A stretch of DNA of 64,000 nucleotides from a virus (lineage: Duplodnaviria > Caudoviricetes), in the IMG/VR virus record IMGVR_UViG_3300037761_000271, positions 1-64,000 of that record. The stretch is one strand, 5' to 3'. Positions 1,911 to 57,870 of this stretch are shown piece after piece (the stretch's first letter is position 1; each line of letters starts with the position of its first letter). Made by a program: the position numbers and the translations under genes. Under the pieces are notes generated by a model, which had not been told where the DNA came from, did not search any database, and saw only the letters and a list, made by a program, of their open reading frames with translations.

Positions 1911-1982
1911 GCCCGCGTAGCTCAACGGGAGAGCGCCGCTTTCACACGGCGGAGGCCGGTGGTTCGACACCACTCGCGGGTA
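1911..1982 (+). tRNA. tRNA-Val(CAC)
   Basis: GCCCGCG/CGCGGGT acceptor; GCTC/GAGC D stem; CCGCT-TTCACAC-GGCGG; GGTGG-TTCGACA-CCACT. Confidence 0.9.
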
Positions 1983-1984
1983 CT

Positions 1985-2048
1985 GTGCCTGTAGTTCAAC
2001 GGTAGAGCGCCGGACGCGGGAGATGCGGGTTCGAGCCCCGCACGCACC
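1985..2048 (+). pseudogene. tRNA-like element lacking the anticodon loop
   Basis: Normal D arm and T arm (GCGGG-TTCGAGC-CCCGC); anticodon arm reduced to 10 nt CCGGACGCGG; imperfect acceptor stem. Confidence 0.7.
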
Positions 2049-2057
2049 GATCGGCAT

Positions 2058-2130
2058 GGTGGCTGTAGCTCAACGGCAGAGCGCCCGGCTGTGACCCGGG
2101 AGCGAGCGGGGTCGGCACCCGCCAGTCACC
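2058..2130 (+). tRNA. tRNA-His(GTG), atypical T-loop
   Basis: G-1 and C73; CCCGG-CTGTGAC-CCGGG; T-loop GTCGGCA. Confidence 0.8.
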
Positions 2131-2135
2131 CCCAA

Positions 2136-2218
2136 GCGCGTCGTGGGCGGCGGCACGCCCAGCTGCCTGTAAAGCAGTCGCGGATTACGCAGACCTGGCT
2201 CGACACCAGGGGCGCGCA
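2136..2218 (+). tRNA. tRNA-Tyr(GTA)
   Basis: GCGCGTC/GGCGCGC acceptor; GCTGC-CTGTAAA-GCAGT; long variable arm; CCTGG-CTCGACA-CCAGG. Confidence 0.8.
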
Positions 2219-2219
2219 C

Positions 2220-3050
2220 TTAGCCCAAGTACATCGAGATGGCGTGAGAGCGCCGGGAGAGCATCCAGGGCCGGATGGCGCGCAACACGGCCGTCGCCTC
2301 TGTGCGAGCACCGACGTTCCACACAAAGGTCTCGTTGTGGTGGGGCTGCTGCGGGGAGCGCCGGTATACGCGACCAGTGCCAGCGGTGGTGGCGAGTCTG
2401 TCTATTACATCTCGATCGATTGAGGCCAGACTAACTCCTGTCCGCAGAATTGATCCCTCGCCTTCGATGAGGCCAGCTGTCCACGCAGCGCCAACTGGGT
2501 CGGCAATTGTGAGGTCCCATCGCCGGGCTGCGGGCATCGGTGGCGCGTCAACGAAGTTTGCAAGCAGTCGCGCTACTGCTGCCCGGCGACGCTGCCCTAG
2601 GTATGATGCGGTCTGCTGGACGAGCCAGGAGACGTAGGCGCGGCGCTGGACCCGCACTATCCAGGATGGCTTGTGGCGGGGGTTCTTGGGTTGGTACTCG
2701 TACCGCGCGGCAAAGGGAATGAGCGTGAGGATGCGATCGGTCACGTCACGGTCGGTCATCTGGACCCGGACGACGCCACCGCCGGACTTCCGGGCTACGA
2801 ATGTGCCCTCTCCCTCCAGGAGGCCGGCGAGCCAGCCAGCGTCAGCCCCGGTGAGCGTAGGTAGGTTGCCGACTGGGCCGTAGGTGCAGTCGCGGCATGC
2901 CTTAGCAACAGGCCGTTTCGGCCGGCCGCACGCGCAGGGATAGCGGACACGCGCTTTCTGATCGCGGCAGACGCCGCACTCACGGTGCCTGCTATTGGGC
3001 CGAAACGTCGACTTGCACGTAGAGCAGGTACGCGATTCCGGTGTTCGCAT
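2220..3050 (-). CDS. Free-standing two-motif LAGLIDADG homing endonuclease with N-terminal Cys-rich region
   Basis: WLAGLLEGEGTF and WTAGLIEGEGSI motifs; CxxC pairs; likely start MRTPESRTC at 3050. Confidence 0.85.
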   Translation of the reverse strand: MRTPESRTCSTCKSTFRPNSRHRECGVCRDQKARVRYPCACGRPKRPVAKACRDCTYGPVGNLPTLTGADAGWLAGLLEGEGTFVARKSGGGVVRVQMTDRDVTDRILTLIPFAARYEYQPKNPRHKPSWIVRVQRRAYVSWLVQQTASYLGQRRRAAVARLLANFVDAPPMPAARRWDLTIADPVGAAWTAGLIEGEGSILRTGVSLASIDRDVIDRLATTAGTGRVYRRSPQQPHHNETFVWNVGARTEATAVLRAIRPWMLSRRSHAISMYLG

Positions 3051-3105
3051 GCGGTTGACCGTACCTCGCAGGTACGACAGCGGGTTCCCTCTCGCTCCCA
3101 CCCAT

Positions 3106-3177
3106 GTCCCCGTGGCGCAACGGAAGCGCACGGCCCTCCGAAGGCCGAGGCTGCTGGTTCGAATCCAGTCGGGGACG
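3106..3177 (+). tRNA. tRNA-Arg(CCG)
   Basis: GTCCCCG/CGGGGAC acceptor; CGGCC-CTCCGAA-GGCCG; GCTGG-TTCGAAT-CCAGT. Confidence 0.92.
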
Positions 3178-3182
3178 CTCAC

Positions 3183-3253
3183 GGTCGGATGCCCGAGTGG
3201 TTAGGGAGCGGGCTGCAACCCCGTCTACCCGGGTTCGAATCCCGGTCCGGCCT
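3183..3253 (+). tRNA. tRNA-Cys(GCA)
   Basis: GGTCGGA/TCCGGCC acceptor; GCGGG-CTGCAAC-CCCGT; CCGGG-TTCGAAT-CCCGG; U73. Confidence 0.92.
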
Positions 3254-3277
3254 CGATGCCATCCGCTGCGGAGACTA

Positions 3278-52886: not shown

Positions 52887-54076
52887 GACTGCCACGGTGG
52901 GTGCACCGGTTGTACGCTGCGGCGGGCGGCTGGTTCTGGCTGCCGTGCCCGGCATGCGGCGAGCACTTCGGCGGGCATGAGGCCGGCAACTGCTCCCGCG
53001 GTACCCGCACGGTGTGCCGCCGCTGCTCGGCCAGCCTCCGCTGCTGTGGTGGCGTGACGGTCAACGGCGAGCGGTTGCACCTGTCGTACGCCGGCCAGCC
53101 GGCAGGAGTAGCAGCTGTGACGCGGCTGGTCTGCTGGCTACGCGGGCATCAGCCGGTGAAGGTCATCGAGCGGGTCAAGCTGGACTCTGTCACACCGTGG
53201 GGAGCGGTCTGGGGCATAGTTGCTGCTCGGCTGGAATGCAGGCGGTGTGGTAGGACCGTAATCGGGGTCCCGCCGCGCCGCAGGGGTGAGCTGCCCGGCG
53301 GGTGGGTCGTGCCGTGACTGACCCGACCCCCGACTATCCCACGCAGTGGATCACCACCGATGCGGTTCGCAACAGCAGGCCGCCAGCAGGTCAGGCCCGG
53401 ACCTACCGTCAGCCGGCGTACACGGTCGGCTGGGTATGCGCGGTCGGCTCGTTGGCGCTGGCCCGTCTGATCGACCCGGACTGGCTGGCCGCTGTGACCG
53501 TGCTGGTCGCCTACCTGGCCGGTGGCTGGTGGATGCGTACCACCTACCGGCAGGCGAGGCCGGACCCGGTGCTCGTGTACGACCGCTGGCTTGCCCACCG
53601 CCGCCGCTGGACACCTGCCGACGTGGCCGCCTGGCTGGTCTACCGGTCGGGCCGCCTGGCCTGCCGGCTGCTGCGACGCCACAACGTGAGCTGTCGCGGC
53701 CGCCTGGACCATGTACGTCCCGACGGGACCGTGATCGAGGCGGGCAGCCGTGGCTGACCCGGCTTTGCCCAACCGGGTCGAGGTTGAGGCGTGGCTGGCA
53801 TCCCGCGCCCACCCCACCGGCTGGGCCACCACCTTGACGGGCCTGCCGTGGGAGATCATCCACCCGGTGTGCCGCATCGCCGCCGCCAGCCGTGTCCACC
53901 CGGCCGTAGTGCTCGGGGCGGCTGCGGCGTACACCGGCGACCGGGGCGACCGGGGCGTCCGGCAGGCCATCACCCAGCAGCTGACCCACCACGGCCACAC
54001 CCCACCCCCAGGCACCGGACCCAACCGCGCCACCCGCCGCGCCCAGACCAGGAACAGCCGCCGCGCTGCGAGGTGA
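52883..54076 (+). CDS. Hypothetical genes (52883-53317, 53314-53757, 53750-54076)
   Basis: Coupled ORFs. Confidence 0.55.
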
Positions 54077-54082
54077 GCCACG

Positions 54083-54385
54083 ATGGCCCGCCACAACCAC
54101 CAGCCCACCACCACCCAACGCGGCCTGGGCCACCCCCACCAGCGGCTCCGCGCCCGGCTGCTACCCCAGGCGTACGGCCACCCCTGCCCCTACTGCGGAC
54201 GACCGATGCTGGAAGGTCAAGACCTGGACCTCGACCACCCGCTGCCCCGCGCCCTGGGCGGGAAGCCTGGTGAGGGTCGCATGGCACACCGACACTGCAA
54301 CCGCTCACGTGGATCGAAGCTAGGCAATGCCTTACGCGCAGCTCGACGGCAGCCGCCACGCCGCGTCACATCACGACGATGGTGA
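54083..54385 (+). CDS. Packaging-associated HNH endonuclease
   Basis: CPYCG...DLDH..PRALGG...AHRHCNRSRG; directly upstream of terS. Confidence 0.85.
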   Translation: MARHNHQPTTTQRGLGHPHQRLRARLLPQAYGHPCPYCGRPMLEGQDLDLDHPLPRALGGKPGEGRMAHRHCNRSRGSKLGNALRAARRQPPRRVTSRRW

Positions 54386-54616: not shown

Positions 54617-54943
54617 ATGTTTCGGAGCGGGGAGGTCCGGCTCGTGGCAGCTCGAACAAGGCGGCTCCGTGCGGTAGGGCCAGGTGAGTCCGCGCAGGGA
54701 AGGAAGCCACCGCGTGTGACGGTAGCGGCCCAGAGCGGCAGCCACAGGGATCTGCTGGTCGCTCTGCGGTCCAGGATTGCCCAGGCAGTCGAGGACCCGA
54801 ACACGCCACCCCGGGATCTGGCGTCACTGTCGCGGCGGCTGCTGGAGATCGCTAAGGAGATCGAGGCGATCGATGCCGACGACCAGGGGGACGAAGTTGG
54901 TGCGGCAGCCGCGACGCCGGACGAACCGTGGGCTGCTACCTGA
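54617..54943 (+). CDS. terS: Terminase small subunit (start uncertain)
   Basis: DLLVALRSRIAQAV...PRDLASLSRRLLEI; position. Confidence 0.7.
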   Translation: MFRSGEVRLVAARTRRLRAVGPGESAQGRKPPRVTVAAQSGSHRDLLVALRSRIAQAVEDPNTPPRDLASLSRRLLEIAKEIEAIDADDQGDEVGAAAATPDEPWAAT

Positions 54944-56390: not shown

Positions 56391-56485
56391 CCCTCGCCTT
56401 GCCCCGCCTGGCCAAGCCAGGCCCGGCCTTGCCGCACCTAGCCATGCCCGGACTCGCCGTACCCAGCCGTGCCCCGCCAGGCCAC
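56391..56485 (-). ncRNA. GGY-NN pentamer array A (18 units), putative guide RNA
   Basis: Plus-strand units gcctt gcccc gcctg gccaa ... gccac in exact 5-nt register; 2 GGT and 1 GTC variants. Confidence 0.85.
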
Positions 56486-56486
56486 G

Positions 56487-57026
56487 CTAACTTTCTCCTC
56501 GCTCCAGCCGCTCCAGCCGAGCCTTGAGTTCCGCGATCTCCTCCTCGGACCGCTCGTGACGCTGGTCCATCGACGACAGGGACTCCTCCAGCCGTTTCTG
56601 TCGGATGTCCATCCGCCGGTTGAAGTCCATCTGTGCGGCGAATGCCCGCGCAACCAGCTCGAATGCCTGCCGGGTGTCCGGGTCCATGCCCGAGAAGTCG
56701 ACGTGGACCACCTTCGAATGACCGGAGCGTAGCGCCCGGTTCGACTTCCGCTGCTGCTGGCGGGCAAGCTGCATGTGCTCGGGTGGCCTCACCACCCGAT
56801 AGCCCTGGTTGGGGACCGCCTCGACCGCCCGCTTGTCGATCAGCTCATGTTCGCGGGCGGCCCGCCGCATCGCCATCTGTAGCTGGTGCCGGTCCCGGAC
56901 AGGATGCAGGCCGAGGGCGTCACCCATCTGCTGGTAGGTGAGGGTGTGGGCGGTCTCGGTGGCCCGGAGCAGGTCGTAGACGATCCGCCACCGGGGTTGC
57001 TCGCCGAGTGGCTGGAATGGTGCCAT
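56487..57026 (-). CDS. Accessory protein of the cassette, possible wHTH plus coiled coil
   Basis: ATG overlaps the upstream TGA; TLTYQQMGDALG...PNQGYRVV. Confidence 0.8.
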   Translation of the reverse strand: MAPFQPLGEQPRWRIVYDLLRATETAHTLTYQQMGDALGLHPVRDRHQLQMAMRRAAREHELIDKRAVEAVPNQGYRVVRPPEHMQLARQQQRKSNRALRSGHSKVVHVDFSGMDPDTRQAFELVARAFAAQMDFNRRMDIRQKRLEESLSSMDQRHERSEEEIAELKARLERLERGES

Positions 57027-57598
57027 CACGCGGTCTCGACCTTGGCGATGAACCGGCCGTAACGGGGGCGCCAGTCGCCCAGCCCGATCAGTTGTCCGGC
57101 GGTTTCGGCGATCGCCTCGACCTCGGCCAGGTCGATGACGTTGGTATCGATGTAGCCGAGGGCATCGGTGCGCCACTCGCGGAACATGGGCCGGCAGCGC
57201 ATGACCCGCTGCTGCCCGACCTTGGCGGACGCCAGCAGTCGGAAGTTCTCATCGGCCCACAGTCCGGCCGCGTCGCGTGGCCCGCGGTAGGCGAGCGGGT
57301 TCAGGTCGGACTTGATGAACACGCCTTCCTTGACCTTCGGCCCGCGCTTGGACTTCTTCGCCGCGTCGTAAAGGGCGCGCCAGATGTTCTCACCGGGGAT
57401 GAATGGGCCGATCTCCGAGTCGATGTAGAGCGACCCGGCGTGCTCCAGCCGGGCGATCTGTTCGTGGTCATCGTCGGTCTTGTTGCGCTTCCCGGTGATC
57501 CGCTTCATGGCCTTTGCGGCTGGGTCGAGCGGGTTGGACAGCCTGCCGCTGTGCATGAGCAGGCTGGTTGTGCCTTCGATGGTGATGCGGAAGTCCAT
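57026..57598 (-). CDS. RAMP/Cas7-like protein (Vipr-like effector)
   Basis: ITIEGTTSLLMH strand; PFIPGENIWRAL resembles the RAMP P.IPGS.KG motif; Gly-rich GLGDWRPRYGRF loop; GAGGAG RBS. Confidence 0.8.
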   Translation of the reverse strand: MDFRITIEGTTSLLMHSGRLSNPLDPAAKAMKRITGKRNKTDDDHEQIARLEHAGSLYIDSEIGPFIPGENIWRALYDAAKKSKRGPKVKEGVFIKSDLNPLAYRGPRDAAGLWADENFRLLASAKVGQQRVMRCRPMFREWRTDALGYIDTNVIDLAEVEAIAETAGQLIGLGDWRPRYGRFIAKVETA

Positions 57599-57624
57599 TT
57601 CCCCGTGCTCCTCGTGTTGGTAGT

Positions 57625-57699
57625 TCCCTGCCGCGCCCAGCCGTGCCTCGCCGAGCCCAACCTAGCCAGGCCGCGCCGGGCCCGGCCCCGCCCCGCCTT
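57625..57699 (-). ncRNA. GGY-NN pentamer array B (14 units), putative guide RNA
   Basis: Exact 5-nt register from 57630 to 57699. Confidence 0.85.
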
Positions 57700-57702
57700 G
57701 CG

Positions 57703-57744
57703 TGCGGTGGTCGGGAGTCGAACCCGACTGATGACCATCACCGC
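57703..57744 (-). ncRNA. tRNA-like acceptor/T-arm minihelix between arrays
   Basis: GCGGTG-atggtcatca-GTCGGG-TTCGACT-CCCGAC-CACCGC-A. Confidence 0.75.
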
Positions 57745-57746
57745 GC

Positions 57747-57816
57747 CCCATGCCCCGCCTCGACAAGCCGTGCCAAACCAAGACTCGCCACGCCCAGCCT
57801 CGCCTGGCCAAGCCGT
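57747..57816 (-). ncRNA. GGY-NN pentamer array C (13-14 units), putative guide RNA
   Basis: Exact 5-nt register from 57752 to 57816. Confidence 0.85.
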
Positions 57817-57819
57817 GCA

Positions 57820-57870
57820 CCCGCAATATACCACGCTTTACGGGATACATACCACGTCTATACCGTGATA
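57820..57870 (-). promoter_or_regulatory. Cassette promoter with repeated operator-like boxes
   Basis: Extended -10 TGgTATATT (minus strand, 57825-57833); ATACCACG at 57828 and 57849; ATACCGTG at 57860. Confidence 0.6.

Follow-up and report, generated by a model that had tools for sequence, protein, structure and literature searches.

A putative vrRNA guide array spelling a zinc-ribbon motif in the VIPR cassette of a high-GC phage

Introduction

VIPR is a CRISPR-like system that was described in 2026 in three preprints. Its guide RNA (vrRNA) consists of 9–16 YNNGG units, in which GGY is constant and the dinucleotide NN is hypervariable; the repeat tract is followed by an invariable structured 3' tail, and processing yields an RNA of about 100 nt that binds Vipr. 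The base skipped in natural targets is mostly the wobble position of a codon, and the published guides are typically in codon register on conserved coding motifs. The cut-off for a target is 80% of the NN positions, and self-targeting is absent. In Escherichia phage SUSP1, the upstream vrRNA was detected and works as a guide, and residue K33 in the helical bundle of the Vipr protein, a minimal RAMP with a single RRM, contacts the target backbone and is functionally required according to mutation data (for all of the above: bioRxiv 10.64898/2026.04.26.720920, 10.64898/2026.04.26.720927 and 10.64898/2026.10.15.759431).

Here we report another member of VIPR, a system whose code and mechanism are already published, from an IMG/VR virus record of 86,485 bases that is about 91% complete. 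The window, which is the whole stretch of DNA presented here, comprises the first 64 kb of this record. The closest described relatives are the type II VIPR systems of SUSP1 and of a Pseudomonas fulva prophage, which consist of Vipr, vap1 and vrRNAs. As in these systems, the cassette is phage-borne, encodes a homologous Vipr protein and a small downstream partner with weak similarity to vap1, carries arrays of 13–18 YNNGG units on both sides of the genes, lacks a self-target, and has a guide that, read in codon register, spells a conserved protein motif. Unlike SUSP1, it belongs to a high-GC lineage of actinobacterial type and is located on the minus strand between terL and the portal gene. 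SUSP1 has a 3' pseudoknot tail, whereas this clade has a minihelix resembling the top half of a tRNA between the arrays, and the array described here (array B) is tail-less. A further difference to SUSP1 is that no natural target was found for array B.

The Cas7 filaments of Class 1 CRISPR systems (Csm3, Cmr4 and the Cas7 of type VII) resemble VIPR in the RAMP fold, in having one protomer per guide unit, and in periodic base flipping. Unlike these systems, the present locus has neither repeats and spacers nor other cas genes; VIPR has a period of 5 bases with 2 informative positions, whereas crRNA has a period of 6 with 5, and the VIPR target is double-stranded DNA that is read with a 1-base skip. 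A CRISPR-Cas locus was rejected because the DNA flanking vipr and vap contains only arrays with a 5-base period and the minihelix, and because the two cassette genes have no match to a Cas family in Pfam or PHROGs.

Results and discussion

The features of the cassette are listed in Table 1. Transcription would start at the presumed promoter and proceed on the minus strand through array C, the tRNA-like minihelix and array B into vipr and vap, and then into array A. The TGgTATATT box is the probable promoter of the cassette, and 'GGTATATTGC' also precedes the first array in two relatives (L002 and L003). We infer the promoter from this box, because a complete promoter with two hexamers was not detected by a simple sigma-70 scan; scanning for sigma-70 promoters and terminators together returned nothing. 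A megablast search of the locus against cultured phages yielded no match.

Table 1. Coordinates of the cassette components, in the order of the presumed transcript, and of the small terminase gene (positions in the window).
Feature	Position	Strand	Basis or remark
Extended -10-like box TGgTATATT	57825..57833	-	read from sequence; 8 bases upstream of the first array
Array C (upstream)	57747..57816	-	13 NN+GGY/GTC units, then terminal ATGGG
tRNA top-half minihelix and ACGC linker	57700..57744 (minihelix 57704-57744)	-	5' boundary of array B
Array B, variable part	57630..57699	-	14 NN+GGY units; putative vrRNA guide segment
Array B, terminal pentamer AGGGA	57625..57629	-	matches the clade-wide array terminator
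Leader from array B to vipr, with GGAG ribosome-binding site	57599..57624	-	sequence; layout as in relatives
vipr, 190-aa RAMP (Cas7-like) protein	57026..57598	-	homology and fold
vap-like partner gene, 179 aa	56487..57026	-	1-base overlap with vipr (TGATG)
Array A (downstream)	56391..56485	-	18 units, then terminal GAGGG
Small terminase (TerS), without zinc ribbon	54617..54943	+	phrog_1459 'terminase small subunit', E 3.8e-30

The 190-aa protein is 34% identical to gp039 of SUSP1 over 186 aa (BLASTP, E 2e-39), and a profile of 35 relatives (A1) matches the structure of the SUSP1 Vipr protein (PDB 36pp_D) with an E-value of 9e-45. Its AlphaFold model (pLDDT 90.9) has its best Foldseek matches among the Csm3/Cas7 backbone subunits (Csm3, E 6e-6). 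The gene belongs to phrog_4652; no Pfam family was found for it. Residue K32 aligns with the K33 of SUSP1 mentioned above and reaches a conservation of 90% or more in alignment A1. The partner gene (phrog_5926) shows weak local similarity to gp038 of SUSP1 and is 35% identical to gp77 of Gordonia phage MakoManhole, annotated as 'DNA binding protein', which follows the Vipr homologue of that phage. Judged by these similarities and by the array structure, the cassette is a VIPR system of the SUSP1 kind, in which array B would supply the guide segment of a vrRNA.

On the minus strand, positions 57625-57699 read AAGGC GGGGC GGGGC CGGGC CCGGC GCGGC CTGGC TAGGT TGGGC TCGGC GAGGC ACGGC TGGGC GCGGC AGGGA. 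Array B thus consists of 15 pentamers, namely 14 clean NN+GGY units (13 GGC, 1 GGT) and a 15th unit of AG+GGA. The dinucleotides of the 14 units are AA GG GG CG CC GC CT TA TG TC GA AC TG GC, and the string listed in the preliminary description, which continues with AG, was identical when the minus strand was re-read. Since the 15th unit (AGGGA) fits the terminator motif of the clade, A[AGT]GG[AG], the guide most likely has 14 units, and the final 'R' of the decoded peptide is dropped; AGGGA is probably a terminator that carries no guide information. Array B adjoins vipr on the upstream side and is followed only by this pentamer and the vipr leader, without a minihelix tail; since most other arrays of the clade have such a tail, its absence counts against the guide reading.

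The same anatomy was encountered in a family survey of 80 IMG/VR loci encoding Vipr relatives. These loci contain 167 arrays with at least seven good units (185 at a looser threshold), every one of them on the vipr strand, which is a bias far beyond chance. The dinucleotides are hypervariable and differ from locus to locus across the 80 loci. In most arrays of this clade, the variable units are followed by the terminator pentamer, and after most arrays a spacer of 50–60 bases that folds as the top half of a tRNA leads to the next array. Arrays that abut vipr end with the terminator pentamer and run straight into the vipr leader; those of L001, L002, L003, L006, L007 and L067 end with AGGGA or AAGGA.

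A scan of all 86,485 bases of the record revealed only three long arrays (57752-57816, 57630-57699 and 56396-56485), all on the minus strand and all flanking one pair of minus-strand genes, vipr and the vap-like gene. A functionless tract, whether GC-rich simple sequence, a piece of coding sequence, or an attP-type site beside a tRNA fragment, might be considered because the minihelix, like the core of an attP site, resembles a 3' tRNA half. We regard this as highly improbable in view of the 14 consecutive GGY in strict 5-base phase, the confinement of the long arrays to the surroundings of vipr, and the uniform strand of the arrays in the 80 related loci. Moreover, the minihelix recurs between arrays within single loci, and Pfam and PHROG scans detected no integrase family among the genes from HNH to portal (about 54.1–59.3 kb). 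The family-wide pattern of arrays contradicts a non-functional tract, and the readings as coding sequence, as an attP site and as repeats due to chance were rejected.

A 10-unit stretch with 8 NN+GGY units, located away from the cassette (53984-54033, minus strand) within coding-looking DNA, is probably due to chance in a sequence of 70% GC. In the whole genome, the sequence best matched by array C is the 5' end of the portal gene of this phage (57956-57993, plus strand; 20/26 positions, 77%). This match is below the published cut-off of 80%, and its level was reached by only 1 of 200 unit-order shuffles.

The minihelix, as read from the sequence, has an acceptor-like stem of 6 bp (GCGGTG/CACCGC) and a T arm (GTCGGG-TTCGACT-CCCGAC), and separates array C from array B. 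In the minimum free energy fold, the acceptor-like strands are paired and the inner hairpin is shorter than the T arm read by eye; folding of the 231-nt precursor was uninformative. The element was called neither by ARAGORN nor by Rfam. A minihelix with a GTTCGA loop and a ...CACGC end lies between the arrays of L002, L003, L005, L007, L017, L022, L036, L037 and L039, and is repeated between arrays inside single loci. The presence of a tRNA-like minihelix between arrays suggests that guides may be processed at this element by the RNase P or RNase Z of the host. Neither a tRNA nor such a minihelix element is mentioned in the main texts of the three VIPR preprints.

Near the beginning of the record, ARAGORN called five clustered tRNA genes (Val, His, Tyr, Arg, Cys; 1911-3254, plus strand). 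Rfam also gave five hits in this cluster, of which four are shared with ARAGORN; the Tyr gene is absent from the Rfam hits, and a borderline extra hit is located at 1985-2048.

In many relatives a tail-less array ends 20–40 bases before the start of vipr, and this position would suit a role of array B mainly in cis, as a leader on which Vipr polymerises and thereby tunes its own translation or mRNA stability, the dinucleotides being nearly irrelevant. We consider such a role improbable as the main function, because the dinucleotides vary as much in vipr-proximal arrays as in the others, as expected of guides, and because the upstream vrRNA of SUSP1 was detected and works as a guide. The roles in cis and as a guide are not mutually exclusive.

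Read as a guide, array B specifies the sequence AAxGGxGGxCGxCCxGCxCTxTAxTGxTCxGAxACxTGxGC (14 dinucleotides). The underlying code, in which every third base is skipped, had been proposed in the preliminary description and agrees with the published VIPR rule. In codon register, the 15 units decode to K/N G G R P A L Y C/W S D/E T C/W A R/S. The peptide given earlier is arithmetically right and, as a reading of the guide, holds for 14 of the 15 units, its last residue (R) probably stemming from the terminator and not from the guide. The earlier recognition of GRPxxYCSxxC as a protein motif was borne out by its common occurrence, in frame, in phage contigs and actinobacterial genomes. The motif is part of a module with a CxxC located 10–20 residues upstream and a basic CRxxAxR helix downstream. 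The seven fixed codons were found in at least 119 stretches of viral contigs, with about half of the matches listed being in frame, and the module also occurs in Mycobacteriaceae, Streptomyces, Nonomuraea, Spirillospora and others. Its members match phrog_16925, phrog_2308 and phrog_6975 and, weakly, Pfam DUF2116 ('probable treble clef'); one member matches zf-CGNR. The decoded peptide has the core G-R-P-x-x-Y-C-S-x-x-C, which is invariant in alignment A2 of zinc-ribbon small terminases and their relatives (phrog_16925, phrog_2308; weak DUF2116, zf-CGNR). These proteins are the proposed target; array B itself is not protein-coding, and the highest agreement of any member with the guide is 23/28 positions.

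Based on the unit frequencies of 185 arrays, the chance that a 15-unit guide spells the seven fixed residues is about 4e-9, and none of the 185 related arrays spells the motif. Even when thousands of equally recognisable motifs are allowed for, a likeness by chance is unlikely, with the proviso that the motif was recognised after the fact. The module is also present on HNH nucleases, response regulators and coiled-coil proteins. In Streptosporangiales (L264, L266, L272, L275 and others), a protein of 390–430 aa combines an N-terminal ribbon (RRSGRPALYCGDACRAAAHR) with a long coiled coil rich in Ala, Glu and Arg; it was found in at least 10 of 301 genomes, and a relative is named 'Chromosome segregation ATPase' by one source. 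Small ribbon proteins of Streptosporangiales adjoin genes of insertion sequences or group II introns, a context that gave no clue.

The absence of a matching gene from the window, which had been noted in the preliminary description, extends to the whole 86.5-kb genome, where a motif scan also found none. The best self-match of the guide in the whole genome was 19/28, which is level with shuffled guides and agrees with the published absence of self-targeting. The motif was likewise absent from the 80 vipr loci (motif scan), and 50 whole records of VIPR-bearing relatives contained no zinc-ribbon member. The public data searched yielded no convincing target.

The exact 11-unit core of the guide had no match in viral_contigs and genome_contigs (one genome for each of 185,579 species), and the exact 10-unit core had a single match in metagenome_contigs, which is out of frame and contains stop codons. 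Each 8-unit half of the guide, left and right, had one exact match, out of frame and attributable to chance. The motif GRPALYCSxxC was absent from viral contigs, and GRPxxYCSDTC had 6 viral and 37 genomic matches, the best of which in frame reached 24/30 and 22/30, respectively. The best in-frame match of all, with 23/28 positions or 82% (24/30), is on a contig of 55% GC (L209; KKRGRPRLYCSDTCKR); agreement at this level is to be expected from chance or from belonging to the family. The best match in frame in Mycolicibacterium reached 22/30 (RRGRPRRYCSDTCRR), a conserved coiled-coil protein of Streptosporangiales 20–22/30 (RRSGRPALYCGDACR), and the actinobacterial members of the module 20–22/30 guide positions. 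When the module profile (A2) was searched against 5.8 billion proteins and the 8000 candidates sharing most words were scored, the best candidate agreed in 11 of 14 residues. None of the target searches (viral, genome and metagenome collections; protein profile search) gave a match of 90% or more.

Nor were matches enriched over a control at the stringency used, enrichment being the criterion set in the preliminary description. When up to 3 mismatches were allowed, the 11-unit core matched 30 times in 301 Streptosporangiales genomes, versus about 34 for the reversed pattern that served as control (the latter counted by hand from the table). The single hint of a signal is that about half of the real core matches are in frame in this one module. 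The two 24/30 matches in 2.4 Gb of Streptosporangiales genomes are both out of frame. As the null we used a product model for each register, derived from 200 GC-rich ORFs, which predicts, for GC-rich coding DNA, about 1 match of at least 24/30 per Gb and 1e-4 per Gb at 27/30 or more; the out-of-frame 24/30 matches and the counts of 30 and about 34 fit this model. Matches of 80% arise by chance; for array B, a match would have to reach 90% or more to identify a target. In GC-rich DNA, the 80% cut-off of NN positions fails to distinguish targets from chance matches, and decoded motifs need a stricter test before they are called targets.

Since no convincing target was found, the target class is put forward as a hypothesis. 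The claim that the decoded peptide independently supports the code is not borne out as stated: with neither a target nor an enrichment, what support there is comes from how improbable it is a priori that a guide spells the motif (about 4e-9), judged after the fact. Array B may also be a real vrRNA guide whose likeness to the zinc ribbon is coincidental, its true target being non-coding, in another register, on the reverse complement (L-A-Q-V-S-D-Q-Y-R-A-G-R-P-P), or a sequence that has vanished. A coincidence would be consistent with the lack of targets of 90% or more in the collections searched, with the missing enrichment of the 11-unit core over the reversed control, with the chance origin of 80% matches, and with the selection of the motif after the fact. 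It is nevertheless the less likely reading, though a possible one, given the low chance of spelling seven fixed residues, the in-frame location of about half of the Streptosporangiales core matches in this one module, and the typical codon register of published VIPR guides on conserved coding motifs. We consider it probable, with moderate confidence, that array B is a vrRNA guide directed against a foreign zinc-ribbon gene, most plausibly the TerS gene of a rival phage.

By homology with SUSP1, whose system has been solved structurally, Vipr protomers would polymerise along the vrRNA, each burying one GGY and presenting the next NN; the dinucleotides would pair with a double-stranded DNA target in which every third base is flipped out, and binding would silence transcription. 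The target would be a foreign gene with a zinc-ribbon module, most plausibly encoding a zinc-ribbon small terminase or another gene of the packaging module of a rival phage. The present data show the anatomy, the homology and the existence of the motif family, and the binding rule and the silencing are taken from the literature; we infer that the arrays are expressed, that they are processed at the minihelix, and what their target is.

The terminase was proposed because of the position of the ribbon genes in other phages. In about 40 sampled viral loci, which represent two to three lineages, a ribbon gene is located 350–400 bases upstream of a TerL gene whose product is 36–45% identical to the TerL of this phage. 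The ribbon proteins upstream of TerL belong to phrog_16925 and consist of a zinc ribbon followed by a C-terminal domain, which in L131 also matches phrog_1459, a TerS family. The best near-match, L209, heads a TerL-portal module, and in L083 and L120 the ribbon is fused to TerL. The TerS of this phage aligns with the C-terminal part of the ribbon proteins of L131 and L124 and has no ribbon; an anti-ribbon guide would therefore spare its owner and could strike rivals whose packaging module is related. The variable positions of the guide are not matched well by any of the ribbon-bearing TerS examples, and since the module is promiscuous (HNH, response regulators, coiled coil), the terminase is only one candidate. 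The full proposal, in which array B of this cassette, itself inserted in the packaging module of the phage, silences the zinc-ribbon TerS (or ribbon-TerL fusion) of a rival, the owner is immune, and the guides are matured by RNase P or RNase Z on the minihelices, is speculative and, taken as a whole, unlikely. If true, it would add rival DNA packaging as a new class of VIPR targets, unmentioned in the main texts of the three preprints, and rival packaging genes would be silenced via a conserved zinc-binding motif from which synonymous changes offer no escape.

The TerS of this phage (phrog_1459) corresponds to the C-terminal half of the wider family phrog_16925, which bears the ribbon in phages with a related TerL (L131, L124, L081). 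An HNH endonuclease gene (54083-54385) is located just upstream of this TerS gene.

A search of a large protein collection with the 190-aa protein retrieved 678 relatives at an E-value of 0.001 or below. The locus extends the range of VIPR to a large conserved clade of high-GC phages of actinobacterial type with at least 678 protein clusters, which includes cultured Gordonia and Mycobacterium phages whose genes are annotated as 'hypothetical'. Examples of Vipr homologues annotated as 'hypothetical protein' in cultured actinophages are gp78 of MakoManhole (L283) and gp34 of Mycobacterium phage LittleE (NC_042322), with 57% and 49% identity, respectively; L041 is grouped with these. Such phages would make practical experimental models for the clade. 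Three sediment DNA runs gave contigs that were fragmentary and of no use for array B. The sediment sample that is the probable source of the record contains a diverged copy of vipr, with 57 differences in 426 bases over positions 57173-57598 (run X1), so that related VIPR phages seem to coexist in one sample.
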